Source: Verrucomicrobiia bacterium
GTDB taxonomy: Bacteria; Verrucomicrobiota; Verrucomicrobiia; Limisphaerales; UBA11358
Length of the DNA: 64,000 bases
Direction: 5' to 3'
Assembly (NCBI GenBank): GCA_036502245.1
Contig: DASXYX010000068.1
Span: 4,190-68,189 of the forward strand
The notes below the pieces were generated by a model. It saw nothing but the letters and a program-made list of their open reading frames with translations. It did no database searches and was not told the DNA's origin. The position numbers and the translations under genes were made by a program. Positions 3,044 through 60,005 of the stretch are shown here, in pieces (the first letter of the stretch is position 1; each line of letters begins with the position of its first letter).

Positions 3044-3172
3044 TTCTGTGGTTCAGGCGAATTGCCGCGCCTGAAATTTGTTCAATTGCTGAATTTCCGC
3101 ACTGTCATCGGTATGCGTCAACGCGTGCCCATGGGGATTTGCGGAGATCGAAAATCAACTTTTTGAAGAATT

Positions 3173-5404
3173 ATGAAACAGCTTGGAAAGACCCGATTAT
3201 ATTGGTCGGTCATTTCGCTCGCCGCTTTGTCCTGCGGCGGGGTGGCGTTGGCGCAAACCAATGCCGTGATGGGTTCAGTAGAGGGGACAAATTCCGTTGC
3301 CGAAACTGCGACGAATGTCGCCAACCTCGGCAACATGACCATTGTCGGCCAGTTGAACCAGGCGCGCAGCCAGATCGTGCCGGACCTGGGCGCGACGGTG
3401 TACACGGTCAGCCAGGCGCAGATCGCCTCGCTGCCGCAGGGGGCCAACACGCCGTTCAATCAGGTGCTGCTCCAGACGCCCGGCATGGCGCAGGATTCGC
3501 TGGGCCAGGTCCATTTGCGCGGTGAGCACGCCAACCTGCAGTACCGCATCGATGATGTGATCCTGCCCGAAGGCGTCACCGGATTTGGGCAGGAACTCGA
3601 TCCGCGTTTTGTCGATTCCATGCAGCTTATCACCGGCTCATTGCCCGCTGAGTATGGCTATCGCACCGCGGGCATCGTGGATATCCAGACCCGCAGCGGC
3701 GCGTTCGAGAACGGCGGGAGCGGGGAAGTGTACGGCGGTACGTACGATACTATTGAGCCAAGCTTTGAATACGCCGGCTCACAGGGAAAATGGAATTACT
3801 TCATGGACGGCAGTTACAATCACAATTCGCTGGGCATTGAAAATCCCATGCCCAGCCATTACGCCGACCATGACGACACCGGCCAATACCGCACGTTCCT
3901 ATACGGCTCGCGCATCTTGAGCGACACCAGCCGCATCACAGTGATGGGCAGCCTGGATTACGCCAACTTCCAGATCCCCATTAACCCGGCACAGGCGCAA
4001 ACGCCACAGCCCGCCGCCGCCTCCTGGTCTGCCGACCCGAATGCGCAAAGCCCGAACGATCTGAACGACAATCAAAACGAGCAGAACTATTACAGCGTTG
4101 TCGCCTATCAGAAATCGGCTGGGAACCTGGATTTCCAGGTTTCCGCCTTTGGCCGGGAGAGCGGCGCGCATTATGTGCCGGATAATGTTGACGCCACGGT
4201 GAACTACAACAACGGCGTGGCCACCGATGAGCATCGCCTGCTCAATTCCGGCGGCGCGCAGGCCGACGCCAGTTACGAGTTGGGCGATAAACACACGATC
4301 CGGGGTGGGTTCATGTTAAATGACGAAATCGTTGCCGCCGATGCCACCACATGGGTTTTCCCGGTGGACGGTGCTGGCAACGAAACTGTCCCCGGTGAAG
4401 CGCCCGAAAACATCGTGCAGGATGAAACCACGCACGCGCTGTTCTACGGCGTTTATTTGCAGGACGAGTGGAAGATTGTTCCGAAACTCACGCTGAATTA
4501 TGGCGCGCGCTTCGACGTTTTCTCGTCCACGACCGATCACCAGAACCAGCCCAGCCCGCGGGCGAACCTGATCTATCAGCCCACGGATTCCACGACGTTC
4601 CATGCCGGTTACGCGCGTTACTTCACGCCGCCGCCGCAGGAGACGGTTCCTGCCGGGAATCTGGCGGCATTCAATAACACTTCCGGCGCGCAAGGCTATA
4701 CGCAGGATTCTCCGGTGAAAGCCGAGCGCGCGAATTACTTCGACGCCGGTGTCAGCCAGAAAATCCTGCCGGGCCTGACCGCAGGCGTGGATGGTTACTA
4801 CAAGAAAGCGAGCAACCAGTTGGACGACGGATTCTTTGGGCAATCGCTCATCCTCTCGTCGTTCAATTATTCCGAGGGCCGGATCTATGGCGTGGAATTC
4901 ACCACCAGTTACGAGCACGGCGGATTTTCCTCATACGCCAACGTGGCCTGGGGGCAGGCGGAGGGCAAAGGCGCGTCCACGGCGCAATTCCTGTGGGGCG
5001 ATGCAGCCACCGTAGCCTACGTCAACAGCCATTATATATTCCTGGACCACGACCAGCGCGTGACCGGCTCCTTCGGCGCGGCCTACACGTGGAAGGAATC
5101 GGAGCGATACAGCACGCGATTGGATACCGATGCCCTCTATGGCAGCGGCCTGCGGGAGGACAGCACGGACGGTTCCGGCAACACGATCCCCAACGGGGCC
5201 AGTGTGCCGTCTTATTTCTCGGTGAACGTCGGCGCGGAACAAGCCGTCAAGTTGAACCACGGCATGGTGTTGAAGGCGCGGTTCGACCTCGTGAACCTCA
5301 CTGACAACATCTATCAACTGCGCAGCGGCAGCGGCGTGGGAGTGAATGCCGCTCAATACGGCGAGCGGCTGGGATTCTTTGGCTCGCTCGCCCTTACGTT
5401 CTGA
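3173..5404 (+). CDS. TonB-dependent outer-membrane receptor
   Basis: Signal peptide ending in ALAQ, plug-domain motifs (VHLRGEHANLQYRIDDVILPE) and a long beta-barrel region ending in a terminal aromatic residue (LALTF). Confidence 0.9.
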   Translation: MKQLGKTRLYWSVISLAALSCGGVALAQTNAVMGSVEGTNSVAETATNVANLGNMTIVGQLNQARSQIVPDLGATVYTVSQAQIASLPQGANTPFNQVLLQTPGMAQDSLGQVHLRGEHANLQYRIDDVILPEGVTGFGQELDPRFVDSMQLITGSLPAEYGYRTAGIVDIQTRSGAFENGGSGEVYGGTYDTIEPSFEYAGSQGKWNYFMDGSYNHNSLGIENPMPSHYADHDDTGQYRTFLYGSRILSDTSRITVMGSLDYANFQIPINPAQAQTPQPAAASWSADPNAQSPNDLNDNQNEQNYYSVVAYQKSAGNLDFQVSAFGRESGAHYVPDNVDATVNYNNGVATDEHRLLNSGGAQADASYELGDKHTIRGGFMLNDEIVAADATTWVFPVDGAGNETVPGEAPENIVQDETTHALFYGVYLQDEWKIVPKLTLNYGARFDVFSSTTDHQNQPSPRANLIYQPTDSTTFHAGYARYFTPPPQETVPAGNLAAFNNTSGAQGYTQDSPVKAERANYFDAGVSQKILPGLTAGVDGYYKKASNQLDDGFFGQSLILSSFNYSEGRIYGVEFTTSYEHGGFSSYANVAWGQAEGKGASTAQFLWGDAATVAYVNSHYIFLDHDQRVTGSFGAAYTWKESERYSTRLDTDALYGSGLREDSTDGSGNTIPNGASVPSYFSVNVGAEQAVKLNHGMVLKARFDLVNLTDNIYQLRSGSGVGVNAAQYGERLGFFGSLALTF

Positions 5405-5406
5405 AC

Positions 5407-6099
5407 ATGGAAGCAAATCGAACAACTTACACATTGAAGAGCGAACTGGCCCGCTACTCACTGCCCTCCGCGCGGCAGGAACCGAACCAAAAGCTCGCGT
5501 GGGTCAATTCGATTTGCCTCCTTTTCCTCATCATCGGGATTGCCGGTGCGCGGGAGGGCCTCATCTCCATCAAAGCCGTTCCGCCCATCCGCCAAATCGT
5601 GCCAGTCGTTCTCGAACCAACCATCCTGCCGCCGCAGAAGACTGTTGAAGAAAAGAAACCGGTCGTGGAAAACAATCAACCGCGTATCGTTATGGCCCTT
5701 CCCAGTGCGCCGAACATCCGTTTCTCAGTGCCGACCATCGGCACGCTCGTTGCCCCCGCCGCGCTGGCGTCCGCGCCACCTTTAAATCCGCTGGCGACCG
5801 AATCGCAGATCGGAAACATCGGCAACACCGGCGCCGGCGGTGACCGTCCGTATCCGCCCTATCCGCAATTGTCCATGCAACACGGGGAGCAGGGGACCCT
5901 CACCCTCCTGCTCGGTGGCGATGCGGCGGGCAATGTCGTCTCGGTTGATATCAAAGAATCTTCCGGATTCGCTTATCTCGACCAGGCCACAGTTGCCTTC
6001 ATGAAAACCCATTGGCGCCTGCCCGCGGGCGTCGGCGCGCATCTTTTTCAAACAACCATTACCTACAAACTAAAAATCGAATCCAATTCACTGCTATGA
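5407..6099 (+). CDS. TonB-family energy transducer
   Basis: Starts 3 nt after the receptor stop. N-terminal TM segment, Pro-rich linker, and a C-terminal TonB-like domain (YPPYPQLSMQHGEQGTLTLLL...VVSVDIKESSGFAYLDQATVAFMKTHWR). Confidence 0.8.
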   Translation: MEANRTTYTLKSELARYSLPSARQEPNQKLAWVNSICLLFLIIGIAGAREGLISIKAVPPIRQIVPVVLEPTILPPQKTVEEKKPVVENNQPRIVMALPSAPNIRFSVPTIGTLVAPAALASAPPLNPLATESQIGNIGNTGAGGDRPYPPYPQLSMQHGEQGTLTLLLGGDAAGNVVSVDIKESSGFAYLDQATVAFMKTHWRLPAGVGAHLFQTTITYKLKIESNSLL

Positions 6100-6776
6100 T
6101 CGCTAACATCGTCTTCCAATTCATCCTCCAGGGCGGCCCTATCATATGGCCGATCCTCATCTGCGCCCTTGTGGCCGTGGCTGTCGTTGGCGAACGCGCC
6201 TTCTGGTGGTGGCGCGAGGCCCAAAAGCGCGACCCGCACAAATTGGAACAGATCTTTGCCGCGCTCGAAAATTCTGATGTTGCTACCGCTAAAAAATTGG
6301 CCGAAGGCTCGGAGGACCCGCTCATCCGGGTCATCCGTCACGGCCTCACCCACGTGGGCCATGCGCATGGGTCGTTGATCGGCGCATTGCAACTGGCCGC
6401 GGGCGTCGAACTCAAACGCGCCGGGCGTTTTCTTACCGTCATGGACACGCTCGTCACCCTCGCGCCGCTGCTCGGCCTCCTGGGCACGGTCACCGGCCTG
6501 ATGAGCGCGTTTCTCCACATCGGCAGCGCTGAACTTTCCGTCACCGCCGTCACCGGTGGCATCGGCCAGGCATTGATCGCCACCGCCTGCGGCCTCGCCA
6601 TCGCCATTTTCTCGCTCATCCCGTTCAACTATTTTTCCGCCCGTGTCGCCCAATTACAGTTCGACCTCGAAACCGCCGCGACGAATGTGGAAGTCCTCGT
6701 CGGTGGCGGCGCCAAATCCGGCGACACCGTTCATCTGCACAAACACACACCACCCGGCCAGGTGACCAGCCACTGA
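6096..6776 (+). CDS. exbB: MotA/TolQ/ExbB proton-channel protein
   Basis: The internal ATG at 6096 overlaps the TonB stop (ATGA). Three TM segments and the conserved LAPLLGLLGTVTGL / GGIGQALIATACGLAIAI region. Confidence 0.85.
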   Translation: MIANIVFQFILQGGPIIWPILICALVAVAVVGERAFWWWREAQKRDPHKLEQIFAALENSDVATAKKLAEGSEDPLIRVIRHGLTHVGHAHGSLIGALQLAAGVELKRAGRFLTVMDTLVTLAPLLGLLGTVTGLMSAFLHIGSAELSVTAVTGGIGQALIATACGLAIAIFSLIPFNYFSARVAQLQFDLETAATNVEVLVGGGAKSGDTVHLHKHTPPGQVTSH

Positions 6777-6779
6777 GCT

Positions 6780-7020
6780 GTAGGAGCCGACGTAAGGAGG
6801 CTTAAACGTTAATGAATATATTGAATTCTAATCTCCGGCGGCTGAAAGCCGCCTCCATTGTAGCCGAGGGCAACGCCCTCGGAAGTCTCCGTAAATTGTT
6901 ATTGCCCTGTAAGGGCAATCCATATTGTTCAAAACCGGAAGCTGGACTGATTACAGGAAGTTTCCTCCGTTGGTCTGGGGGGAACGGGCTGCCAGCCCGT
7001 TGCGGTCGGCAACTTGCCGA
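6780..7020. repeat. Spacer filled with REP-like hairpins
   Basis: Contains tgtaggagccgacgtaaggaggc (related to the element inside hrpB at 43660). Also has the hairpins ggcggctgaaagccgcc, gccgagggcaacgccctcggaa, ttgccctgtaagggcaa and cggtcggcaacttgccgaccg. Confidence 0.6.
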
Positions 7021-7041
7021 CCGTGTCCGATCTTCAACATC

Positions 7042-7458
7042 ATGAAAATCCCTTCCCCCATCCCCAGGCGCCGCTCACGGATCGTCATCATTCCGCTGAT
7101 CGACATCATGTTCTTTCTGCTCGCATCGTTCATGATGATCAGCCTGCAGATGAGCCGCACCGCCAACATCAAGGTGGCCCTTCCTTCCGCCACGCAGGCG
7201 CAACAGGACTACAAACCGAACATGGTCAACATCGCCGTGGACAGATCCGGCGCTGTCTGGCTCGAAAAAAAAGAAGTGACCCTCGCGGATCTCGGTCTTG
7301 TTTTGAGCAATCGTTTCGCCCTGGACACCAATCTGCCCGTCTATATCAGCGGCGACCGCGACACGTTGCATGGCGATATGGTGAAGGTGTACCAAATCGT
7401 CCGCGCCGCCGGCATCCAGAACGTTGCCTTCATGACTGAAAATGAAAATTCAAAATAA
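7042..7458 (+). CDS. exbD: ExbD/TolR biopolymer transport protein (copy 1)
   Basis: Motif IIPLIDIMFFLLASFMM at the N-terminus and a periplasmic domain ending in GDMVKVYQIVRAAGIQNVAF. Start chosen at the internal ATG preceding the conserved N-terminus. Confidence 0.85.
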   Translation: MKIPSPIPRRRSRIVIIPLIDIMFFLLASFMMISLQMSRTANIKVALPSATQAQQDYKPNMVNIAVDRSGAVWLEKKEVTLADLGLVLSNRFALDTNLPVYISGDRDTLHGDMVKVYQIVRAAGIQNVAFMTENENSK

Positions 7459-7706
7459 ACCATAAATGAACACAGATAAACACGGGTTTTTCAAAAAGGA
7501 GCAAGGTGAGCTGGTAGGACGAGGCTCCTGCCGAGCCGCTTATGCTTTGGTGGAACAGGCGTCTCGCCTGTTGCATCGGGCCGCTGGCCCGATGCCCTCT
7601 GACAATTGCAGCGTTTGTCGTCCTAGAGAGCAGCAGCCCTCTGCGGCTTTGCGCCTTTGCGTTATGTCCCCAATCTGTGTTCATCCGTGTCCATCCGTGG
7701 TTAAAA
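7458..7706. repeat. Spacer between the exbD paralogues bounded by inverted copies of the 'ccacggatggacac' repeat family
   Basis: aaccataaatgaacacagataaacacggg lies at 7458-7491. Its inverted counterpart ctgtgttcatccgtgtccatccgtggtt lies at 7671-7706. Internal hairpin catcgggccgctggcccgatg. Confidence 0.6.
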
Positions 7707-8129
7707 ATGAAGATCCGCACACCCATCGCTGAAAAAAAGTCGCGCCTGGAGATCATCCCGCTGATCGACATCATGTTTTTCCTGCTGGCGTCGTTCATGA
7801 TGGTCAGCCTCCAGATGCAGATCGTGCGCACTCTCAAGGCCAACCTGCCCACCGCCACCCTGGCCACCTCTACGAAGAAGCTGGACATGATAAATTTCAA
7901 TATCAACAAAGACGGTCAGGTTTCCATGGATGACAAAAACATTCCCTTTCCCGCGCTCTACACCATGCTGACCAATCGCTACAGCCTCAACACCAATCTG
8001 CCGGTCTATCTCACCGGCGCGGACGATGCCACGCACGGCTCGGTGATGTATGTGCTGGATTTTGTGCGCCGCGCGGGCATCCAAAACGTAGCCATCGCCG
8101 TCAAAGCTTCCTCTGATTCAAACCCATGA
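7707..8129 (+). CDS. exbD: ExbD/TolR biopolymer transport protein (copy 2)
   Basis: Motif IIPLIDIMFFLLASFMMVSLQ plus GSVMYVLDFVRRAGIQNVAI. It is a paralogue of the preceding gene. Confidence 0.85.
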   Translation: MKIRTPIAEKKSRLEIIPLIDIMFFLLASFMMVSLQMQIVRTLKANLPTATLATSTKKLDMINFNINKDGQVSMDDKNIPFPALYTMLTNRYSLNTNLPVYLTGADDATHGSVMYVLDFVRRAGIQNVAIAVKASSDSNP

Positions 8130-8641
8130 AAAATTTTCAACAAAACCTCCTCCTCATTCTCGCGCTCGGCCTCTGCGGCTTGTGCGTGTTCCAATGGTGC
8201 GTGCAAACGGCCCAGCGCACCGAGATCCAGACCCAGAACCAGATGCTCTATGAGCGTGATACCTCTATCCAAAGCGACACCAACTCTATTGCCACTCTCA
8301 ACGCCCAGGTCGCCCGGATGGACCAACGCATCACTGAGATTAAGGCCGTTGCCGCCACCAATGAGCAACTCATTGCCTCGCAAAAAGCGCAGCTTATCCA
8401 GTTGCAGTTCGATAATGAAAGCCTCACCAACGAAGTCGTCCAAAACAAAGCCGCCGTGGATGAATTGACGGCAAAGCTAACGAATGCCTACGCCGGTATC
8501 GAACAACAGAACCAGGCCATCACCAATCTCCTTTCCCAGCGCGATGACCTCGCCAAAAAGTATAACGACGAAGTGAAAGACCGGAACGACGTCGTCGCCA
8601 AATACAACGACCTCGTCAAACAGATGGGCAAAAGCCAGTGA
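8126..8641 (+). CDS. Membrane-anchored coiled-coil protein, translationally coupled to exbD2
   Basis: ATGA overlap with the exbD2 stop. N-terminal TM (LLLILALGLCGLCVF) followed by about 140 aa of Q/N/E/K-rich heptad-like sequence. Confidence 0.6.
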   Translation: MKNFQQNLLLILALGLCGLCVFQWCVQTAQRTEIQTQNQMLYERDTSIQSDTNSIATLNAQVARMDQRITEIKAVAATNEQLIASQKAQLIQLQFDNESLTNEVVQNKAAVDELTAKLTNAYAGIEQQNQAITNLLSQRDDLAKKYNDEVKDRNDVVAKYNDLVKQMGKSQ

Positions 8642-8746
8642 GAAGTTAAACCAGAAAATAGTAAAAAATATAGTCGCCAAAACAATAAACGTTCGACAGC
8701 CTTTGTCCGACATGCGTGGTACATTTATTTGGTTTAAAAATTGAAA

Positions 8747-9535
8747 ATGAGTGATAAATCAAAAATCGAATGGACTGATGCGACGTGGAACCCGGTGCGG
8801 GGCTGTACCAAAATCAGCCCTGGCTGTTTGCACTGTTACGCAGAGACCTTCGCAGAGCGCTTTCGCGGGGTGCGTGGCCATCCGTTTGAATTTGGTTTTG
8901 ATCTGCGTTTGGTTCCCGAGAAACTCGGTGATCCATTGCGTTGGTCGACGCCTCGAAAGATTTTTGTGAATTCCATGAGCGATCTGTTTCATCCCCAAGT
9001 GCCGGATGAGTACATTATCAAAGTAGCACGCGTGATGGTCGCTGCTAACTGGCATACCTATCAGGTGCTAACCAAACGCGCCGACCGACTGCACGAATTA
9101 TTGACAGACAAACTCCGGTTTGCGGTGGAGCAATCACATATCTGGTGGGGGGTTAGTGTTGAAAACCGCAAGCATGGTCTTCCGCGAATTGATTTATTAC
9201 GCAAAACGTCTGCGCAGGTCCGTTTCCTTTCAATAGAACCATTGCTTGAAGATCTGGGTTCTATCAATTTAGGCGAGATCAATTGGGTAATTGTTGGTGG
9301 TGAAAGCGGGCCGGGAGCACGCCCCATACAAGCAGAATGGGTGCGGGATATTCGTGCCCAATGCCATAACGCCAAGGTCGCATTCTTTTTTAAACAGTGG
9401 GGAGGGGTTCGAAAATCTCGGACGGGGCGCATTTTGGATGGCAAAACGTATGACGAATATCCTCATTTTCCACAGAATTCTGTTGCAACTTTGAAGCGGC
9501 GCAGTGAATTATTAGCCGAATTTGAGAATAGCTAA
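8747..9535 (+). CDS. DUF5131 / phage Gp37-Gp68-like three-Cys protein
   Basis: IEWTDATWNPVRGC-x6-C-x2-CYA, VSVENR, FLSIEPLL, WVIVGGESGPGARP and FFFKQWGG match my recollection of Pfam PF07505. An alternative TTG start lies at 8741. Confidence 0.8.
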   Translation: MSDKSKIEWTDATWNPVRGCTKISPGCLHCYAETFAERFRGVRGHPFEFGFDLRLVPEKLGDPLRWSTPRKIFVNSMSDLFHPQVPDEYIIKVARVMVAANWHTYQVLTKRADRLHELLTDKLRFAVEQSHIWWGVSVENRKHGLPRIDLLRKTSAQVRFLSIEPLLEDLGSINLGEINWVIVGGESGPGARPIQAEWVRDIRAQCHNAKVAFFFKQWGGVRKSRTGRILDGKTYDEYPHFPQNSVATLKRRSELLAEFENS

Positions 9536-10614
9536 TGAGTGGCAGGGGTTTTCATGATAAGCCATATGATGCTGGAACCCTGGCCAAGCTCCGGATTTTT
9601 GAGTTGTATGCTCAAGAATGGATTCCAGTTTTCCTTTCTTCGCCCAAGCCGGTATTCGATGAGGTCCATATTTTTGATTTTTTCTGCGGACCGGGTACTG
9701 ATTCTAATGGGGAATTCGGGTCGCCATTGCGGATTCTATCCCAGTTGCGCAATTATCGTGGGAGAGGATTAGCTGGGTGGGACAATATTCCAATCACTGT
9801 ACATCTGTTTGACACTGATGATAAGAAAATCGCGTTACTCCAGTCGTATGTCCTCTCGGAAAAACTGGAAATACCCGGTGTAAAAATTGACCTCCGGCGT
9901 TTAGCCTTTAAAGACGCATTGGATGAACATAGGGAACAATTGTCTAATTCCAGAGTTGCCAAATTACTCATTGTCGATCAATACGGAGTCGACGAAGTTT
10001 CTGACGAGGTTTATGGTAATTTAATTGGCTACCCCACGACCGATTTCATTTTCTTTCTTTCTTCTTCAACCCTCCATCGCTTTCGCGAGCATCCTGCCAT
10101 TAAGCAAAAGATTGATACACTTGAAGATTCTTATGACGTTCATCGCGCAGCCGTGGACTACTACCGAAAACGTATCCCCACCAATAACCAGTTGTTTCTG
10201 GGTTCGTTTTCAATAAAGAAGCGCAGCAACATTTATGGATTAATTTTCGGAAGTCACCATCCGCTTGGTATTCATAAATTCCTGCAAGTTGCATGGGCTA
10301 CAGACGAAATCGCAGGTGAGGCGAATTTTGACATTGAACGAGAAAATATCCAACCAGGTGAGGGAATTTTGCCGCTCGAAATGATGCGCCCGAACAAAAT
10401 TCGAGAATTTGAATCAAATCTGGAAATGGCATTGAAATCGGGTCGAATGAAATCAGAATCAGATATTGCCCGGTTTTGTATAGAAGCAGGGATGACTTGT
10501 AAGCATAGTGTCGCTGTACTAAAAAGAGCCAAGGAAGCAGGCATAATAGACCTCGATTTTCGCGTGCCTGATATTGGAAGGTTCAAATCACCACGTCCGA
10601 TTCGTCTAATCTGA
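9535..10614 (+). CDS. tcmP: TcmP-like 'three-Cys-motif partner' protein
   Basis: One-base overlap (TAATG) with the DUF5131 gene. N-terminal K..AGTLAKLRIFELYAQEWIPVF and FDFFCGPGTD (methyltransferase motif-I-like). Family recalled as TIGR04474, which is defined by adjacency to PF07505. The gene is visibly AT-rich. Confidence 0.7.
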   Translation: MSGRGFHDKPYDAGTLAKLRIFELYAQEWIPVFLSSPKPVFDEVHIFDFFCGPGTDSNGEFGSPLRILSQLRNYRGRGLAGWDNIPITVHLFDTDDKKIALLQSYVLSEKLEIPGVKIDLRRLAFKDALDEHREQLSNSRVAKLLIVDQYGVDEVSDEVYGNLIGYPTTDFIFFLSSSTLHRFREHPAIKQKIDTLEDSYDVHRAAVDYYRKRIPTNNQLFLGSFSIKKRSNIYGLIFGSHHPLGIHKFLQVAWATDEIAGEANFDIERENIQPGEGILPLEMMRPNKIREFESNLEMALKSGRMKSESDIARFCIEAGMTCKHSVAVLKRAKEAGIIDLDFRVPDIGRFKSPRPIRLI

Positions 10615-10725
10615 TAGTCGATTATCGCCAGAACCTCTTCATTCCCTTAATTCTGTCAAAAAATCCTCTCTTAATGCTCCCTTAAGCTGGGCTGGCGTAA
10701 AGTGGCGGCGAGAAAGGACAACTAT

Positions 10726-13014
10726 ATGAAAAAGCTCACACTATTCGCTGTTGGCGCTCTCCTCCTGGGGACCGCCATCTTCACTCGCGCTGCCGATGTC
10801 ACGGTCTATGATTCCGTCGTCAATCTGGCGACCAACGTCACCAAAAATTACCTGTTCACCGACCCATCCTCCGACCAAAGCGTGACGATTGCCGTAAGCA
10901 TGACTCCTTACTCGGCAAGCAACGCCAGCCCGGCCTTTTCGCTGTTGGACACCGATAACAACAACAATTATACCCACATGGGAGTCGATAGCGGCCTGGG
11001 GGGCGGCGACGGCAATTGGGTGGACGACTTTGAAGGCGTTAATTTTTCCGCTTCGCTGGTATCTGCCTCCAGCGGAGTGACCGTCAGCTCGATCCAATTC
11101 GGCATCATCGCCATGGGCATCCGGCCAGAGGGCGGCGCAAACCTTGATTGGGCCTCTTCTGTTTGCACAAACAACTTTGATATAGACGAAGACGAAGTGA
11201 CGGTCCTGGATACGAACCTGGGACCTTTGACCGCCACTTATTCCGGGCAGTTACGGACACCGACGACCGCTCGGTACCAGATCAGCGACGAAGATTCTTT
11301 CAACGGCCAGAGCATCGGATTCACAGCCGTTTTTACTGCCACAGGAACCACCACCGACGCGCGCACGAATTGCTGGCTCACGACCTATTCCGGCAAATAC
11401 GCCCGCATCTGGACGAACAACGCCATGGAGACTGCCGGCAACACTCTGACCAACTGGAGCCTCGGCACAAACATCCAGTCATCGCCGGCCTACTGCGGCG
11501 TGCAGGAAGTTTATTCTTCCACCAATTGGATCTACGTCCGCAGCACCGGCTTGGCCAGTTACACCATGGGACCGTGGATGAACGGCAATTTCCCAAACTT
11601 GCCGGTGAACCAAAAAGTCCTTTACCGTTTCCCGCGCACCAACAGCGTGCCCACGACCAAGACCGCCAATAGCGGCGGCCAGATTGGCGTTTTCGTGGAT
11701 GGTGTGGCCTTTTACAACAGTTGGGACGCCTACACCTGGGACATTGCCTCCAATGCGGATGAACAAAACGTCAGCGGTTACTGGCATCGCGATGCGTATG
11801 TGAATGAAGGAGTCTCGTTCGATCCCGGATATGCGCATCAGCAAAGTGGTGGCCAATATCACTATCATGCCGACCCGATCGCTCTGCGCTACCTGCTCGG
11901 CGACCACGTAGATTATAATTCCACCACCAAAAAATACAGCGAGGACACCAACACACCCACCGAACACTCGCCCATCCTCGGTTGGGCGGCGGACGGCTAT
12001 CCGATCTACGGTCCCTACGGTTATTCCACCGCTACCAACGCCAACAGCGGCATCCGTCGCATGACCTCGGGCTACACGTTGCACCATTACACAGGTGGTC
12101 GCACTGCGATTCCCGAATGGTCCAGCCGCCTCTTCAACGTCACGTCCAACCAGGCCGGCCCGCCCTTTACCGGCATCCATACCAACAGTTGTTACATGGA
12201 GGACAACGATTATCTGGGCGACCTCATCAATTCCGGCACGGGCACCAATTATCAGCAGGGCACGGACTTTGACCTCGACCAGTACAACGGGCGCTTTTGT
12301 GTCACACCGGAATTTCCCGGCGGCATCTACGCCTATTTCGTCGCCATCAACACGAACGGAGTGCCCGTCTTCCCATACAACATCGGTTTTGGATATTACG
12401 GCAACCCGGCCGGTAGCACGGTCGTGGCCATCACCGAGCCAGTGGTCACAAATTTCCTCGGCAATACGAACCTGTCCAGTTCGCTCGGCGTTCCACTTGT
12501 GAAATCCGGCTCGGTCACTCTGACCTGGAGTTCTATCGAAGGCGGCAGCTATGAAGTGCTTTCCTCTACCAATCTCAACAATGCGTGGACGATAGCTTCC
12601 ACCGGCAATAAATCCGCTCCCAACCAGATCACCACCAGCTACACCAACACGACAACACTGCCGCCCAATAATTTTTACCAGGTAGCCCGCACCAGCGTGG
12701 CTGCTTTTGACACGGCGGGGATGACGGTCCTTGCCACCAATATCGTTGTGTCCTCCGGTTCTCCCGGCGCTGCTAAGGCCGGCCAGTATGTGGTCCTGAC
12801 CATTGACCTGCCCAGTTCGCCGCCTAATCCGCCGACGGGCGCGCCTATCACCAGCGTGACTGTTGGCAGTGCCATCGCCACCAGTGTATCGTATCCCTCC
12901 CAGGGTGTGGTCCAGGCGTTGTTCCAGGCTTCTGGAAGCGGATCGCAAACTATCACAGTCACTTTCAATCCCGCGCCTACTTATACGTTGAACGGCTACT
13001 TCTCGGTTAATTGA
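10726..13014 (+). CDS. Secreted YHYH-motif domain protein with C-terminal Ig/FN3-like repeats
   Basis: Signal peptide MKKLTLFAVGALLLGTAIFTRA. GGQYHYHADP and GWAADGYPIYGPYGY motifs (YHYH domain, PF14240 as recalled). Start taken at the ATG giving the signal peptide. Confidence 0.75.
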   Translation: MKKLTLFAVGALLLGTAIFTRAADVTVYDSVVNLATNVTKNYLFTDPSSDQSVTIAVSMTPYSASNASPAFSLLDTDNNNNYTHMGVDSGLGGGDGNWVDDFEGVNFSASLVSASSGVTVSSIQFGIIAMGIRPEGGANLDWASSVCTNNFDIDEDEVTVLDTNLGPLTATYSGQLRTPTTARYQISDEDSFNGQSIGFTAVFTATGTTTDARTNCWLTTYSGKYARIWTNNAMETAGNTLTNWSLGTNIQSSPAYCGVQEVYSSTNWIYVRSTGLASYTMGPWMNGNFPNLPVNQKVLYRFPRTNSVPTTKTANSGGQIGVFVDGVAFYNSWDAYTWDIASNADEQNVSGYWHRDAYVNEGVSFDPGYAHQQSGGQYHYHADPIALRYLLGDHVDYNSTTKKYSEDTNTPTEHSPILGWAADGYPIYGPYGYSTATNANSGIRRMTSGYTLHHYTGGRTAIPEWSSRLFNVTSNQAGPPFTGIHTNSCYMEDNDYLGDLINSGTGTNYQQGTDFDLDQYNGRFCVTPEFPGGIYAYFVAINTNGVPVFPYNIGFGYYGNPAGSTVVAITEPVVTNFLGNTNLSSSLGVPLVKSGSVTLTWSSIEGGSYEVLSSTNLNNAWTIASTGNKSAPNQITTSYTNTTTLPPNNFYQVARTSVAAFDTAGMTVLATNIVVSSGSPGAAKAGQYVVLTIDLPSSPPNPPTGAPITSVTVGSAIATSVSYPSQGVVQALFQASGSGSQTITVTFNPAPTYTLNGYFSVN

Positions 13015-13021
13015 AAAAGCT

Positions 13022-14788
13022 ATGAGGCTGGCCTGCATCTTTCTTGCCGTGGCGTGCGCAGCGAGCGCCTGCTGTGCCGCCACGCTCGAGCTTCAGATCA
13101 CGCCCAAAATGCTCGGCCAGGACCTGCAACCCGCCTCGCTCCGCTACCAGACTTCCGCCGGCGAAACTTTTTCCGTCACGCGCGTGAGCTACTTCATCAG
13201 CGACATCGAATTGCAACGCGATAACGGCTCGTGGTTGTCCTTCTCCAATTCCGTCGAATGGCTCGACTTCAACGCAAACCGCGATTCCATCCGCCTCGAA
13301 CAAATTCCGCCCGGCGAATTTCGCACGGTTCGCTTCCTGGTCGGACTAAATCCCGGCATGAACCACGGCAATATTTCCAAAATTGCGCCTGATAGCCCGC
13401 TTAATCCCGACATGAATAATCTTTATTGGGGCTGGCAGAGCAATTACATCTTCATGGCGCTTGAAGGCCTGTGGCGTAATTCCAGCGGTGAACTCGATGG
13501 CTGGGCTTATCATCTGGCGCGCGATACGAACTCCGTCCGCATCACTCTCGCCGCGGCCATGGACATCACCAACGAAACCAAAGTCCAACTGGACTTCGAC
13601 CTCGCCAGCCTCCTCAACGCTCCGCGCCCGCTCTCCTTCGTCAAAGACGGCACCTCCACTCATTCGCGCGATGGCGACCCCATTGCTTCCGCGCTGGTTG
13701 GAAATCTGCCCAGCGCCTTCCATGTCAGCAAAATCACCGCTCTTACCGATGCCCAGATCACTGCCGCGCATCCCAAGCCGTTGTATCTGCCCGAAAAATT
13801 CACACCGTACCAATTCCAGATGAGCGCCATGTTCCCCATCCCGGACCTGCCGCATGATAATCCGCTCACCGTCGAGCGCGTCACGCTCGGCAAACAATTA
13901 TTCTTCGACAAACGATTATCCATCAACGATATGCAGTCCTGTGCCGATTGCCATCTGCCGGACAAAGCCTTTCAGGATGGCCGCCGCACCGCGCGCGGCG
14001 CGGAAGGCGCTCTCGGTCCGCGCAAAACCATGCCCCTCTTCAATCTCGCATGGAAACAGCAATTCTTTTGGGATGGCCGCGCCAGCAGCCTGCGCGAGCA
14101 GGTTCTTATCCCCATCCAAAACCCGATCGAAATGCACCAGACCCTAACCAACCTCGTTGCCAAACTCGCCCATGTCAGCGGCGATTATCCGGCCTTGTTC
14201 GATAAGGCATTTGGTTCCAAAGACATAACCGCCGAAAAAATCTCCCTCGCCCTCGAAAATTACCTCCTGACTCTCACCTCTTTCGACTCCAAATTCGACC
14301 GCGTCCTCAGTGGCCGGGAACAATTCACCCCCCAGGAAGCGAAGGGTTTTGAACTATTCTCCACTGAGTACGATCCGCGCCGCGGCCAATTCGGCGCCGA
14401 TTGTTTTCATTGTCACGGCGGTCCGCTCTTCCAGAGCCAGGGTTACGCCAACAATGGACTCGACGATATTTTTACCGACCCGGGCCGTGGAAAAATTAGC
14501 GGCAGAGATTCCGACCTCGGCAAATTCGCCGTGCCGTCACTTCGCAACGTCGCGCTTCGTGCTCCTTACATGCACGACGGGCGCTTCAAGACTCTCGATG
14601 AAGTTGTCGAACACTATTGCACTGGTGTCAAACGCAGCATGACCCTCGACCCGAACATCGCCAAGCATCCGGATGGCGGCGTGCCGTTGAACGCTGCTGA
14701 CAAACAAGCCCTCGTCGCGTTTTTGAAGACCCTTACGGATGAAAAATTTCTGTCTCCGCCGGCGTCAGGAGATTACGCCAAAAATTAA
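13022..14788 (+). CDS. Fusion of MbnP-like domain and di-haem cytochrome c peroxidase (MbnH/MauG-like)
   Basis: N-terminal half: SYFISDIELQRDNG, RFLVGLNPGMNHGN, SPLNP..MNNLYWGWQSNYIFMALEG (MbnP-like pattern). C-terminal half: two haem c sites, CADCH and CFHCH, plus the conserved PSLRNVALRAPYMHDGRF. Confidence 0.8.
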   Translation: MRLACIFLAVACAASACCAATLELQITPKMLGQDLQPASLRYQTSAGETFSVTRVSYFISDIELQRDNGSWLSFSNSVEWLDFNANRDSIRLEQIPPGEFRTVRFLVGLNPGMNHGNISKIAPDSPLNPDMNNLYWGWQSNYIFMALEGLWRNSSGELDGWAYHLARDTNSVRITLAAAMDITNETKVQLDFDLASLLNAPRPLSFVKDGTSTHSRDGDPIASALVGNLPSAFHVSKITALTDAQITAAHPKPLYLPEKFTPYQFQMSAMFPIPDLPHDNPLTVERVTLGKQLFFDKRLSINDMQSCADCHLPDKAFQDGRRTARGAEGALGPRKTMPLFNLAWKQQFFWDGRASSLREQVLIPIQNPIEMHQTLTNLVAKLAHVSGDYPALFDKAFGSKDITAEKISLALENYLLTLTSFDSKFDRVLSGREQFTPQEAKGFELFSTEYDPRRGQFGADCFHCHGGPLFQSQGYANNGLDDIFTDPGRGKISGRDSDLGKFAVPSLRNVALRAPYMHDGRFKTLDEVVEHYCTGVKRSMTLDPNIAKHPDGGVPLNAADKQALVAFLKTLTDEKFLSPPASGDYAKN

Positions 14789-14816
14789 TCAATTTCGAAG
14801 ACCCGTTCGCACTCTA

Positions 14817-14890
14817 TTCCTTCTCCCCTCAACGGGGAGAAGGTTAGGATGAGGGGTGAGACTCCAGACAGGGCTTACTTCCCGTCATGC
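14817..14890. repeat. Hairpin repeat family A ('ctcccctcaacggggagaagg...gaggggtgagac'), intergenic copy
   Basis: Nearly identical to copies at 25636-25705 and 44903-44975, and related to 34148-34215, 39949-39990 and 40066-40115. Confidence 0.8.
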
Positions 14891-18050: not shown

Positions 18051-24590
<6,540 letters not shown>

Positions 24591-25319: not shown

Positions 25320-25635
25320 ATCCTTCAATCCGACTGGATCCGACCCAGTCCAGCCCAATCCAAGTCAATCCGACCCAATCAAACCTCTCGAAGAGCGGAG
25401 CTTCCGCGACCCCCTGAATCTATTAAAACCCAAAAATGAGAAAACGAAGCCAAATTATTTCAGGCCGTTCCTGATTGCAAATCCCTCATCAATAATCACT
25501 AGCAAAATGTTCACTCTCAAAATGCCCTCGCAAAAACGAAGCCAAATTGAATCCAAAATGGCATTTACACATTGAACCCCTGAACCTGGTGGAATTGGTA
25601 AAGTTTTCAAATATGAAGGCGTGCACGCACCTTGT

Positions 25636-25705
25636 CCCTTCTCCCCTTAATGGGGAGAAGGTTAGGATGAGGGGTGAGACAACAGACAGGCTTACTTCCC
25701 GCCAT
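25636..25705. repeat. Hairpin repeat family A, intergenic copy
   Basis: cccttctccccttaatggggagaaggttaggatgaggggtgagacaacagacaggcttacttccc is near-identical to the copy at 14817-14890. Confidence 0.8.
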
Positions 25706-33719: not shown

Positions 33720-34856
33720 ATGACTATTTTGGCGATTGAAACTTCCTGCGACGAGACCAGCGCCGCCGTCGTGCGCGATGGAAAAATCCTGTCCAACACC
33801 GTTTCCTCCCAGGTCCAGCTTCACGCGGAATACGGCGGTGTGGTGCCCGAACTCGCCGCGCGCGAGCATCTGAAAAATCTTTTACCCGTCGCCCGCGCCG
33901 CTTTGGACGAAGCCAAAGTATCCGCCGCGCAGATCGACGCCGTCGCCGCCACGCAGGGACCGGGGTTGCCCACGGCATTGCTCGTGGGTTTCAAAGCCGC
34001 GCAGGCCGCCGCTTTCGCGCTCCGGAAGCCTTTCATTGGCATCAATCACCACGAAGCGCATCTCTATTCGCCATGGATCATTTTGGATAATTCATCGCCT
34101 GTTTCTGATACTCAAAACGGCGTGCATGGAAAGACGGCTCCGATTACTTCTTCCCTCTCCCCTCAACGGGGAGAGGGATCGAGGGTGAGGGGTGAGAAAA
34201 CAGAAAGTCACCCGCCTTGCACTTTCCAGCCCAACGTCTCTCTCATCGTCAGCGGCGGGCACACCATGCTTGTGCTCGTCGAATCTGAATCGAAGCATCG
34301 TGTCCTCGGTTCAACCATCGATGACGCCGCGGGTGAATGCTTCGACAAAACCGGCAAGCTGATGGGGTTGGCGTATCCCGCCGGGCCGGAGATCGATAAA
34401 CTGGCAGAGCAGGGGAACCCGAGCGCCTTTGATTTCCCGCGCCCTTTGCTCAACGACCAGGGCGACGATTTCAGCTTCAGCGGCTTGAAGACATCCGTCC
34501 GTTACTTCCTGCGTGACCATCCCGGCCTCGCGAAGGACCCGCAAAAGCTCCGCGATCTCTGTGCCAGCATCCAGGCTGCCATCGTGGAAGTCCTCGTGAA
34601 GAAAACCATCCGCGCCGCCAAACGTGAAGGGGTCCGCTGCATCACCGCGTCCGGCGGCGTCACTTGCAATCGTTCCTTGCGTGATGAACTCGCGAAGACT
34701 TGTAAGCGCCACGGCTTCGACCTGCGCCTGGCCGATAAAAATTTGTGCACCGACAATGCCGCCATGATCGGCATCCTTGCTGAAAGAAAACTATCTGCCG
34801 GAATCCAAGCGGCTTCGTTGGATGAGGAGATTAATCCATCGTGGCAGTTGTTGTGA
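33720..34856 (+). CDS. tsaD: tRNA N6-adenosine threonylcarbamoyltransferase TsaD, carrying an in-frame repeat-derived insertion
   Basis: ILAIETSCDETSAAVV, HAEYGGVVPELAAREH, INHHEAHL and IVSGGHT motifs. An alternative GTG start lies at 33714. The segment between HEAHL and SGGHT is much longer than in canonical TsaD. Confidence 0.9.
   Translation: MTILAIETSCDETSAAVVRDGKILSNTVSSQVQLHAEYGGVVPELAAREHLKNLLPVARAALDEAKVSAAQIDAVAATQGPGLPTALLVGFKAAQAAAFALRKPFIGINHHEAHLYSPWIILDNSSPVSDTQNGVHGKTAPITSSLSPQRGEGSRVRGEKTESHPPCTFQPNVSLIVSGGHTMLVLVESESKHRVLGSTIDDAAGECFDKTGKLMGLAYPAGPEIDKLAEQGNPSAFDFPRPLLNDQGDDFSFSGLKTSVRYFLRDHPGLAKDPQKLRDLCASIQAAIVEVLVKKTIRAAKREGVRCITASGGVTCNRSLRDELAKTCKRHGFDLRLADKNLCTDNAAMIGILAERKLSAGIQAASLDEEINPSWQLL
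34148..34215. repeat. Hairpin repeat family A copy located inside the tsaD reading frame
   Basis: ttccctctcccctcaacggggagagggatcgagggtgaggggtgagaaaacagaaagtcaccc. It translates in frame as SLSPQRGEGSRVRGEKTES. Confidence 0.8.
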
Positions 34857-44747: not shown

Positions 44748-44790
44748 AATTTAATCCGCATTTGCGCCCATGCAAGAAACAAAATCATTT

Positions 44791-44825
44791 AACCACGGAT
44801 GGACACCGATAAACACAGATATGAA
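44791..44825. repeat. Repeat family B ('aaccacggatggacac.gataaacac.gat')
   Basis: Same motif as 56478-56530, 59677-59710 and 59917-59950, and as the inverted pair at 7458/7671. Confidence 0.75.
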
Positions 44826-44902
44826 AATGCCAAATTAAGCGAATTATCGCATAGAACCAAAGGTGGAAAGTGTTTCTTATTGCGGATGTGATCGAAATGT
44901 TT

Positions 44903-44975
44903 TCCTTCTCCCCTCAACGGGGAGAAGGATCAAGGATGAGGGGTGAGACAAGAAAAAGGCTGTCTCATCACCGGC
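44903..44975. repeat. Hairpin repeat family A copy abutting the DUF5069 gene stop
   Basis: tccttctcccctcaacggggagaaggatcaaggatgaggggtgagacaag... Confidence 0.8.
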
Positions 44976-55863: not shown

Positions 55864-56478
55864 ATGGCCAATCTTCGTATCCGGCGCGCCACAGTGGAAG
55901 ACCTTGCCGTCTTGCGCGGCATCTGGGATTCCATGCGTCTGCCTGCGGATGAATTGGAAAAAACGGTGAAAGAATTTCAGGTCACGGAAGACGCCGCCGG
56001 AAACGTGGTCGGCGCCATCGGCATCCGGTGCGTGGACCAATATGCGTTGCTGTATGGCGAAGGGTTTTCCGATTTTTCGCACGCGGACGCTTCGCGGGAA
56101 TTGTTTTTGGAACGGTTGCAAACGCTCGCGGCCAATCACGGCGTTTTCCGGGTTTGGACGGCGGAAAAATCCCCGTTCTGGACACGTTGGGGGTTTCAGC
56201 AGGCGAATGCGGAATTGCTCTCGCGCCTGCCGGAGCAATGGAAATCGTTGGATGCACAATGGCTGACGCTCCAATTGAAGGATGAAGATGCCGTGGCCGA
56301 AGCGATGAAGACGAAGTTCTCGGGTTTCATGGAGCCGGAGAAGCAACAGACGGAGCGGGTTCGCGACCAGGCCAAGACGTTGCGCGTGATCATCACGATC
56401 ATCGGGTTCGTGATATTTTTTGTGTGCGTGGGAATAGTGATCCATATGTTGAAACATCGAAATCCGTTTGAAAACTAA
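55864..56478 (+). CDS. GNAT-family N-acetyltransferase with C-terminal TM anchor
   Basis: IRRATVEDLAVLRGIW, the acetyl-CoA-binding-like segment and FW.RWGF, followed by a hydrophobic tail IITIIGFVIFFVCVGIVI. Confidence 0.65.
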   Translation: MANLRIRRATVEDLAVLRGIWDSMRLPADELEKTVKEFQVTEDAAGNVVGAIGIRCVDQYALLYGEGFSDFSHADASRELFLERLQTLAANHGVFRVWTAEKSPFWTRWGFQQANAELLSRLPEQWKSLDAQWLTLQLKDEDAVAEAMKTKFSGFMEPEKQQTERVRDQAKTLRVIITIIGFVIFFVCVGIVIHMLKHRNPFEN

Positions 56479-56530
56479 CCACGGATGGACACGGATAAAC
56501 ACGGATTTTTAACCGCTAATAAACGCTAAT
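56478..56530. repeat. Repeat family B copy
   Basis: aaccacggatggacacggataaacacggatttttaaccgctaataaacgctaat. Confidence 0.75.
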
Positions 56531-59600: not shown

Positions 59601-59676
59601 TCCAAATTCTTTTTAACACAGATGAAGAGATATGAACAGGAGGAAACAGAGAGAACAGAGGTGAGAAATAATTTTT

Positions 59677-60005
59677 ACCACGGATGGACACAGAGGAACA
59701 CGGATTTTAACGCAAAGACGCAAAGGCGCGGAGACGCAAAGAATTTTAACCGTTAACCCCGAAAGCTTTCGGGGCTAATCCACGCTAACGGACGCTAATC
59801 AAAAACCAAAGCGGTGTCATTGCCACCGCAGTCCAAGACGGCAAGCGTTTGCGAAGGGCCAAACCAAATTTCGCGCCAGCTTTTGGAGTGCGGCAGTCCT
59901 CTGCCGCTTTGAAGATAACCACGGATGGACAAAGAGGCACACGGATTTTTAGCCACAAAAAAACAAAAGAATTTTAACCAAAAGATAACGAAGAAAACAA
60001 AGGCA
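59677..60005. repeat. Repeat-dense spacer: family B (x2), 'cgcaaagacgcaaaggcgcggag' unit and family C
   Basis: accacggatggacacagaggaacacggatttt at 59677. aacgcaaagacgcaaaggcgcggag at 59709 is the reverse complement of 24996-25030. Family C lies at 59851-59914. accacggatggacaaagaggcacacggatttt at 59917. Confidence 0.75.

Follow-up and report, generated by a model that had tools for sequence, protein, structure and literature searches.

What does a compact, AT-rich gene pair do inside a Ton/YHYH operon, and is it a new kind of nucleic acid modification or defense module? The question is raised by a 64,000-nucleotide stretch of contig DASXYX010000068.1 (positions 4,190 to 68,189 of the forward strand; GenBank assembly GCA_036502245.1, a Verrucomicrobiia bacterium of the Limisphaerales), which we refer to as the window and in whose coordinates positions are given unless another locus is named. 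Two adjacent open reading frames (ORFs) in it encode a DUF5131 ("phage Gp37/Gp68") protein and TcmP, the three-Cys-motif partner protein, and an earlier note made from the letters alone had singled them out as a mobile islet carrying a candidate undescribed modification or anti-phage system. We find that the window copy is an ordinary, intact orphan member of a DUF5131-TcmP cassette and that it is a horizontally acquired insert of ~2 kb. Our preferred reading of its function, which we hold tentatively and regard as plausible rather than probable, is that this orphan acquired copy of the defense candidate PDC-M30 encodes a two-subunit, S-adenosylmethionine (SAM)-dependent nucleic acid-modifying enzyme, probably acting on DNA, that serves in conflict between hosts and their phages or plasmids; complex formation is inferred, as are the nucleic acid substrate, the reaction chemistry, and the role in the cell. 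New in this analysis are the demonstration of the insertion from empty sites, the quantified coupling of the two genes and their association with restriction-modification (R-M) systems, the predicted fold of TcmP, a palindrome belonging to the cassette, and alternative LexA-type boxes.

A tightly coupled gene pair inserted into a Ton/YHYH operon

The two ORFs overlap by a single base, with the stop codon of ORF1 and the start codon of ORF2 sharing the sequence TAATG, and for ORF1 an alignment of homologues (consensus MSDKSKIEW...) favors the ATG at 8747 over an upstream TTG at 8741. The sequence motifs by which the pair had first been recognized are all in place: ORF1 carries W14-N15-P16-x3-C20-x6-C27-x2-C30-Y-A, VIVGGESGPGARP, and FFFKQWGG, and ORF2 carries FDFFCGPGTD at residues 47 to 56. 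The AT richness noticed at the outset is equally clear, as the G+C content (GC) is 0.42 to 0.48 over approximately 8650 to 10750 and 0.53 to 0.63 on either side (~0.46 for the pair versus 0.57 in the flanks).

The TcmP family comprises 1,059 representatives at 50% identity, and its family-wide alignment is too variable to serve as a query for loci. A pattern scan over species representatives (GTDB, one genome per species) yielded 324 relatives, most of them in Verrucomicrobiota and the remainder in Acidobacteriota, Nitrospirota, Chloroflexota, Actinomycetota, Planctomycetota, Desulfobacterota, Bacteroidota, and others; the 80 closest of these, mostly on contigs of metagenome-assembled genomes, form the locus set used throughout, with neighboring genes called by a crude longest-ORF method. 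The DUF5131 and TcmP genes are near-obligately linked: 79 of the 80 loci have them side by side on one strand, which bears out the earlier description of a tightly coupled, recognized gene pair. Gene order is DUF5131-tcmP for TcmP proteins with ≥41% identity to that of the window and is reversed in a clade at 36 to 39% identity, and across phyla DUF5131 stays ~70% identical while TcmP falls to ~50%. Two loci (L006 and L007, 9090 to 9995) have an intact TcmP (66% identity) next to a DUF5131 region of 35% identity that was called as a gene of 97 amino acids, and the partner there may be degraded or frameshifted.

The module cannot be called undescribed, as had been proposed, since the pair corresponds to the PADLOC candidate PDC-M30 and the NCBIfam name TcmP is itself built on the pairing. 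Both window proteins match the models of this adjacent-gene candidate near end to end (E = 1.7e-98 for TcmP against M30A and 5.2e-104 for DUF5131 against M30B), and PDC-M30 and PDC-M41 are the only PADLOC models that the pair matches. PDC-M30 was derived through "guilt-by-embedding" and has not been validated (PMC10855318); it is a bioinformatic candidate without a phenotype or mechanism, and the window copy is not embedded in a defense system.

On its 5' side the pair is preceded by genes for a TonB-dependent receptor, TonB, ExbB, two ExbD proteins, and a 171-amino-acid coiled-coil protein (cc171), and on its 3' side it is followed by a YHYH gene and then by a gene for an MbnP/CCP_MauG protein. 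Two metagenome contigs (L101 and L102) keep this Ton/YHYH operon, with most of the proteins 77 to 95% identical to those of the window, and have neither DUF5131 nor TcmP in it: the gap between cc171 and YHYH is 137 to 165 bp there and 2,084 bp in the window. The right junction falls at approximately 10627, with window positions 10627 to 10728 aligning to the intergenic region of L102 (score of 83). The left 105 bp (8642 to 8746) bear only a weak resemblance to the empty site (score of 25, shuffle P of ~0.08), and because the same stretch is conserved among cassettes, we regard it as the cassette's own leader; a target-site duplication was considered and rejected on account of that weak likeness. 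Low GC is a general property of the family, the pair lying below its flanks in 78 of 80 loci (mean difference of -6.6 points, Wilcoxon P = 1.4e-14), and this, together with the empty sites in two close relatives, supports the horizontal acquisition that the earlier note had suspected.

As reported before, no integrase, tRNA, or terminal repeat accompanies the insert: no convincing direct or inverted repeat flanks the cassette, the tRNA scan found no tRNA in the 64-kb window, and none of the genes called within 10 kb encodes an integrase. Promoter and terminator scans, folding of the 3' tail, Rfam, and the tRNA scan returned nothing significant at the cassette ends; a Guanidine-I riboswitch candidate at 8559 to 8644, within the 3' end of the coiled-coil gene, was dismissed as a chance match (Rfam score of 21.7 bits against 63, E = 0.68). 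Since the pair lies on the same strand as the operon and no terminator is detectable, the insert may be cotranscribed with its surroundings and may affect expression of YHYH. The interrupted cluster itself, which runs from the TonB-dependent receptor through MbnP/CCP_MauG (3170 to 14788), is likely one for metal (perhaps copper) uptake, and its YHYH-MbnP pairing is maintained in more than 50 metagenome loci.

The DUF5131 and TcmP proteins

ORF1 matches PF07505 over profile positions 1 to 243 of 243 (E = 2.5e-97, 325.6 bits against a threshold of 28.9) and also matches PHROG 2045, a family without an assigned function; its 120 closest homologues are 75 to 82% identical to it. The three cysteines C20, C27, and C30 are invariant in 37 homologues. 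Also invariant in homologues is G184-G185-E186, which sits at the end of the fifth strand of the structural model; the VIVGGESG sequence around it is presumably comparable to the GxIxGxxE and GGE SAM-binding motifs of radical-SAM enzymes. A weak homologous match to TIGR04471, "radical SAM mobile pair protein A" (67.7 bits, E = 1e-18, residues 15 to 217), argues for a radical-SAM ancestry of ORF1, but the score is far under the equivalog cutoff of 355 bits, and the protein is not a member of that family.

The Cys motif had been described at first as reminiscent of, though not identical to, that of radical-SAM enzymes. The likeness stands, and the wording proves too weak, since DUF5131 is a curated subgroup of the radical-SAM superfamily, Megacluster-5-2 at RadicalSAM.org, with CX6CX2C as its stated motif (PMC9477430); the C20-x6-C27-x2-C30 spacing of ORF1 fits this motif exactly. 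Spore-photoproduct lyase is Megacluster-5-3 and thus shares a megacluster with DUF5131 (PMC9477430). Spore-photoproduct lyase and other SplB-type enzymes therefore offer a point of comparison within Megacluster-5, the lyase acting directly on DNA; unlike DUF5131, it has the canonical CX3CX2C and no TcmP partner.

Structure prediction adds less for this protein. The AlphaFold2 model of DUF5131 has six β/α units, with a predicted local distance difference test (pLDDT) score of 71 overall and <50 in the Cys loop, and as a model it is β/α barrel-like and nothing beyond that. Foldseek searches with this low-confidence model gave only weak TIM-barrel matches (E values of ≥0.03), among which lipoyl synthase ranked 49th. 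Solved radical-SAM enzymes gave neither a sequence match nor a significant structural match from ORF1, and single-sequence and profile searches found no usable sequence relative in the PDB for either DUF5131 or TcmP.

ORF2 is a member of TIGR04474, the TcmP family (121.9 bits, cutoff of 53), so that both family assignments made in the earlier note are confirmed by profile search. It has no match to any Pfam family at E values up to 10, curated methyltransferase families included. The AlphaFold2 model (pLDDT of 83, predicted template modeling score of 0.83) contains a Rossmann domain of seven strands that includes a terminal β6/β7 hairpin, a disordered linker at residues 266 to 285, and a C-terminal winged helix of three helices and short strands (residues 287 to 345, pLDDT of 92 to 96). 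Foldseek recovered 122 PDB matches at E values of ≤0.001, and among the 50 listed nearly all have the class I SAM-dependent methyltransferase fold; the best of those listed is the tRNA methyltransferase Trm1 (3axs; E = 1e-5, template modeling [TM] score of ~0.38). Enzymes of the same class were returned again from a library of viral structures. The suggestion of a methyltransferase-like ORF2, made originally from motif I alone, is thereby upheld by its predicted fold.

The residues expected around a cofactor site are well conserved in TcmP. Motif I, FDFFCGPGTD, is located at the C-terminal end of model strand β1, and its D48, G52, and G54, together with G151, do not vary among 58 family members that range down to 29% identity. 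In the same alignment D148 and Q149 are ≥90% conserved and position 150 is not conserved, which defines a DQxG loop, and the acidic D93 after β2 is near-invariant within the close clade and, family-wide, still the majority residue. We take the DQxG loop to be comparable to the DPFG of Trm1 and the (D/N)PP(Y/F) of amino-methyltransferases. Because motif I and DQxG are conserved on a class I fold, the SAM pocket is probably retained, and the catalytic loop, judged by its sequence, is not a textbook (D/N)PP(Y/F). TcmP thus shares with class I enzymes such as Trm1 the seven-strand Rossmann topology, a DxFxGxG motif I, the post-β2 acid, and a D-x-x-G loop, and it differs from them in its low similarity (7 to 16% identity and TM scores of 0.3 to 0.5 in the Foldseek matches) and in the absence of a Pfam methyltransferase match; relative to Trm1-type enzymes it adds the C-terminal winged helix-turn-helix and an obligate pairing with a radical-SAM protein. 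The winged helix is echoed in three homologues that are 65 to 69% identical to the window protein (P0036, P0094, and P0095) and match the PF22560 GMT-like winged helix-turn-helix family, of which P0036 alone passes the 27-bit cutoff (29.3 bits); the window TcmP itself has no match to this family.

Genomic contexts and possible function

The DUF5131-TcmP family is strongly associated with R-M, other defense, and mobile-element contexts. Type I hsd genes or their remnants lie on the same strand as the pair in 23 of the 80 loci, where the usual order is hsdR, hsdS, zero to two ORFs, DUF5131, tcmP, sometimes an IrrE-like M78/HTH gene, and hsdM, all on one strand and often with overlapping stop and start codons; hsdM, intact or as a 5' stub, starts ≤400 bp after tcmP in 14 of the 23. 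Among the 141 nearest neighbors the commonest Pfam families are HSDR_N, HsdM_N, N6_Mtase, Methylase_S, and Eco57I, followed by ResIII/SWI2_SNF2, AAA_15, LexA/S24, Fic, M78, AAA_21, reverse transcriptase, and HNH, and components of Type IIG and Type I systems are the commonest among the PADLOC matches. A defense neighborhood of homologous pairs, for which the earlier note had proposed a check, is what we observe for the family, and it recovers independently the R-M embedding from which PDC-M30 was derived as a candidate. It does not extend to the window, in which tblastn with six hsd queries found no hsd homology below an E value of 0.1 and the neighbors are ExbD, the coiled-coil protein, and YHYH. 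Of the mobile defense-type islet originally envisaged, the acquisition and the R-M and defense neighborhood of the family hold; this copy itself lies in neither a defense island nor a prophage and sits alone in the Ton/YHYH-MbnP operon. Seven loci (L021, L025, L036, L050, L056, L061, and L084) have short fragments of hsdM (or of hsdR or hsdS) beside the cassette and no intact R-M system; by sequence, the R-M-embedded state may be ancestral in this clade, with R-M genes decaying around a retained pair.

On mobile elements the picture is similarly varied. DUF5131 is found in 440 of 72,556 plasmid records and 181 of 50,697 phage records, and TcmP accompanies it in all 11 plasmid loci inspected. 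Type ISP/IIG enzymes of ~1,600 amino acids abut the pair on Leptospira and Mycobacterium plasmids, two Abi genes adjoin it on a Leisingera plasmid, and on a Sulfitobacter plasmid (MOBP) it lies among genes for H-NS, SSB, DUF932, and RadC; on a Comamonas plasmid an S24 peptidase gene shares bases with the start of DUF5131, RecD2 is a neighbor in another locus, and the pair also occurs within Tn7-like cargo. On Sinorhizobium meliloti pSymA (L185, 1245000 to 1275000; features at 9221 to 11322, 11340 to 12263, and 12345 to 14879), the pair is followed convergently by genes for a 307-amino-acid protein matching PDC-M41A and an 844-amino-acid protein matching PDC-S28, the latter at the position of Hna (SMa2245) (PMC12445080). 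Judged by these matches, PDC-M41, a second PADLOC candidate containing DUF5131, co-occurs with PDC-M30 and Hna in S. meliloti. Two Pseudomonas plasmids, pF046 (L091, 3925 to 4971) and pCAR1 (L181, 5000 to 5971), have a site-specific integrase of 320 to 350 amino acids ~30 bp 5' of the pair on the same strand; this integrase matches no PADLOC model, and the arrangement may be a three-gene variant or merely the edge of an integrative element.

In phages the two genes are coupled less strictly. Gordonia phage Fairfaxidum encodes a TIGR04474 member (gp43, annotated "methyltransferase") that is convergent with DUF5131 gp42 and directly downstream of the temperate-phage immunity repressor gp44 on the same strand, and tblastn with gp43 recovers eight further Gordonia phage records, nine in all. 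An absence of TcmP from phages was accordingly rejected, as tblastn with the window protein misses such diverged members; because TcmP diverges fast, counts made with single sequences underestimate the family. Six other phages carry a longer, solo DUF5131 with no TcmP within 3.5 kb, located in replication and recombination modules with AAA_24/Sak4-like, NinB, RusA, C5-methylase, and ASCH neighbors; an ASCH gene is listed for a Rhizobium phage as well. Some phage DUF5131 proteins are annotated "RNA methyltransferase" by their depositors. These labels, the ASCH-domain genes next to phage copies, and the identity of the best TcmP structural matches (Trm1, TYW4, KsgA, TrmR, and TrmM) would suit a mobile cassette for tRNA or rRNA modification, which might shield its host from anticodon nucleases or, in a Cfr-like manner, from antibiotics. 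We consider this very improbable, since the Foldseek matches are generic at the identities and TM scores given above, depositor annotations are labels only, and the winged helix, the conserved DNA palindrome described below, and the R-M embedding all point to DNA.

If the pair is the modifying enzyme that we favor, TcmP would read its target through the winged helix, and its class I fold with motif I and the DQxG loop would give a pocket for SAM and a base; DUF5131 would bind a [4Fe-4S] cluster on CX6CX2C and cleave SAM to a 5'-deoxyadenosyl radical, which would act on the TcmP-held nucleotide in a reaction beyond those of ordinary methyltransferases. The product would be a self mark or an anti-restriction mark, and a product of this kind would explain both the embedding in R-M operons and the carriage by plasmids and temperate phages. 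Profile searches found no nuclease, protease, or pore-forming domain in either protein, which agrees with an enzyme that marks nucleic acid. A more specific version, possible but on the doubtful side, is that a DUF5131-TcmP heterodimer installs a novel radical-derived, nonmethyl DNA mark at sites read by the winged helix, forming a new epigenetic layer that would work together with Type I and Type ISP restriction or override it and that would serve hosts as a self mark and plasmids and phages as anti-restriction. Conceptual analogues are defense systems that modify DNA with Fe-S or SAM enzymes, such as Dnd/Ssp phosphorothioation and Dpd 7-deazaguanine modification, and the radical-SAM viperins (pVips), all of them likewise mobile defense-island enzymes that alter nucleic acids or nucleotides; no homology of the pair to any of them was detected.

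A number of observations weigh against such an enzyme. Approximately 70% of the loci, the window included, have no R-M genes within 10 kb, and the R-M operons that do hold the pair already carry an intact HsdM with NPPF, so that a second self mark is not obviously needed; second-line defense genes such as PrrC are also embedded in R-M operons. Most phage DUF5131 proteins lack TcmP, which indicates that the radical-SAM subunit can work without it. There is no significant radical-SAM structure among the Foldseek matches of the DUF5131 model, itself mediocre; the top structural matches of TcmP are RNA and not DNA methyltransferases; and position 150 carries no conserved aromatic residue, which leaves it uncertain that methyl is transferred to an exocyclic amine. 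In the literature that we searched, no paper on the function of DUF5131, TcmP, PDC-M30, or PDC-M41 came to light, in keeping with the initial statement that neither partner has an experimentally assigned function.

Several of the same contexts would also be expected of a stand-alone or second-line anti-phage effector that does no self-marking, in which TcmP would detect an infection or the blocking of an R-M complex and DUF5131 would damage invader or host nucleic acid or make a viperin-like antiviral small molecule, leading to abortive infection or replication arrest. The position between hsdS and hsdM in spite of an intact HsdM parallels that of the anticodon nuclease PrrC, which in the EcoprrI locus lies within hsd genes in the manner of the pair in the 23 R-M-embedded loci; the proteins are unrelated, however, the pair is without a nuclease domain, and most of its copies, that of the window among them, are without an R-M partner. 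The neighboring Abi, AAA_15, AAA_21/AbiEii, reverse transcriptase, and Fic genes, the company of Hna and PDC-M41A in S. meliloti, the placement of gp43 directly 3' of the immunity repressor gene on the same strand, and the patchy distribution and low GC of the cassette fit an effector as well. PADLOC lists the pair as a defense candidate, and PDC-M30 is predicted in 32 of 100 Pseudomonas aeruginosa strains, 68.8% of which belong to the phage-resistant group (PMC10855318), but this correlation is weak, and the overall count of systems per strain confounds it. Neither protein shows a detectable toxic or nuclease domain, a solo DUF5131 in phage replication and recombination modules would be odd for a host-killing effector, and the plasmid setting with SSB, DUF932, and RadC fits anti-defense better than defense; on balance we regard an effector as rather unlikely.

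Assigning a reaction to the pair would provide a function for a whole radical-SAM subgroup, as DUF5131 is curated without a known reaction, and would lead to the confirmation or removal of a PADLOC candidate predicted in roughly one-third of the P. aeruginosa strains. If the product were indeed a new DNA modification, the pair would represent a new type of player in restriction and anti-restriction biology.

Upstream elements and other features of the window

The leader of the cassette contains a palindrome, CGACA-GCCTT-TGTCC, followed by an extended -10-like element (Table 1). In an alignment of 15 leaders the GGAC and TGTC halves are invariant, and GTGnTAnnTT is conserved ~10 nucleotides 3' of the palindrome in aligned cassette leaders. 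Across the 66 loci used for counting upstream motifs, GGACA-N5-TGTCC with ≤2 mismatches occurs 39 to 57 nucleotides before the DUF5131 start in 18, from several phyla, against a background of 0.049 per 150 bp that predicts ~3 loci by chance. A simple sigma-70 scan does not call the -10-like element, and for this reason its role as a promoter is our inference. Because the palindrome travels with the cassette and the winged helix is the only DNA-binding domain encoded there, TcmP may be the natural candidate for a regulator that binds it. The window copy is of value mainly for its compactness, as a 2-kb unit that brings along a putative operator.

A second upstream motif, TGTTC-N4-GAACA, occurs 15 to 24 nucleotides before the start in 5 of the 66 loci, compared with an expectation of 0.0028 per 150 bp; it is present, perfect or with one mismatch, before the cassette start in the Opitutaceae-type loci L024, L025, L026, and L028. 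We take it to be the LexA box reportedly described for Verrucomicrobia by Erill et al. 2016, and its position suggests that the cassette is under SOS control in Opitutaceae-type hosts. In four other loci (L005, L017, L037, and L078) lexA is the divergent neighbor of the cassette, and a 22-bp palindrome, ATACTATCC-N4-GGATAGTAT, overlaps the lexA start in three of them (L005, 9081 to 9098; L017, 5492 to 5509; L037, 9079 to 9096), with a one-mismatch variant at the lexA start of L078. This palindrome is a candidate lineage-specific LexA box distinct from TGTTC-N4-GAACA. It is not found in the window. SOS control of the window copy was rejected, as TGTTC-N4-GAACA does not occur near the cassette and ACTATCC-N4-GGATAGT is missing from the whole window.

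The LexA-type boxes elsewhere raise the idea of a DNA damage-inducible module for repair or damage processing, in which the radical-SAM subunit would act on a DNA lesion, reversing or processing it as spore-photoproduct lyase does, with TcmP binding either that lesion or the DNA. Besides the boxes before the start in the four Opitutaceae-type loci, the four divergent lexA genes, and the S24 peptidase overlap on the Comamonas plasmid, such a role would agree with the membership of both DUF5131 and spore-photoproduct lyase in Megacluster-5, with the RecD2, RadC, and SSB neighbors, and with the phage copies beside Sak4-like (AAA_24), NinB, and RusA genes; splB is, moreover, listed among documented SOS genes (PMC8565304). 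We nevertheless judge it improbable: the window cassette has no LexA-type box, the sporadic, horizontally transferred, and R-M-embedded distribution is unlike that of a core repair gene, SOS control is also typical of mobile elements, and a methyltransferase-fold partner has no obvious part in repair.

Table 1. Positions of the cassette and its predicted elements in the window
Feature	Position	Strand	Basis
Inserted low-GC cassette, ~1.98 kb	8642..10626	+	Empty sites in L101/L102, GC; boundaries approximate
Palindrome CGACA-GCCTT-TGTCC (CGACAGCCTTTGTCC), candidate operator traveling with the cassette	8694..8708	+	Conserved in homologous leaders
Extended -10-like element TGGTACATT (TGnTAnnnT)	8717..8725	+	Conserved in aligned leaders
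ORF1 (ATG to TAA), DUF5131/"phage Gp37/Gp68" radical-SAM-superfamily protein, 262 amino acids, PDC-M30B	8747..9535	+	PF07505, PDC-M30B, PHROG 2045
Codons of C20-x6-C27-x2-C30, predicted [4Fe-4S]/SAM cluster motif	8804..8836	+	Cys conservation, CX6CX2C subgroup motif
Codons of G184-G185-E186 in VIVGGESG	9296..9304	+	Invariant; end of fifth model strand
ORF2 (ATG to TGA), TcmP (three-Cys-motif partner protein), 359 amino acids, PDC-M30A	9535..10614	+	TIGR04474, PDC-M30A, AlphaFold2 model
Codons of F47-D56 (FDFFCGPGTD), motif I, predicted class I SAM-methyltransferase fold	9673..9702	+	C-terminal end of model β1, conservation
Codons of D148-Q149-Y150-G151, motif IV-like loop after β4	9976..9987	+	Family alignment
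Codons of residues 287 to 345, predicted C-terminal winged helix-turn-helix	10393..10569	+	AlphaFold2 model; PF22560 in homologues

Away from the cassette, the window contains three kinds of repeats. Twelve tandem copies of a 276-bp unit, 64 to 86% identical, occupy 20799 to 24167 inside the gene for a 2,146-amino-acid sensor protein on the minus strand that has many HAMP and HAMP_2 matches, and the stretch looks like an array of 92-amino-acid HAMP repeats. A hairpin-containing intergenic repeat, TTCCTTCTCCCCTCAACGGGGAGAAGG...GATGAGGGGTGAGA, is present in four copies (14782 to 14873, 25600 to 25690, 34151 to 34207, and 44867 to 44958), the first of them directly 3' of the MbnP/CCP_MauG gene, and may be a terminator or a repetitive extragenic palindromic (REP) element. 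An interspersed element with the core ACCACGGATGGACACGGATAAACACGGATTTTT occurs five times (7445 to 7505, 44778 to 44838, 56464 to 56524, 59663 to 59723, and 59904 to 59964), with one copy between the two exbD genes, and looks like a REP-like repeat.

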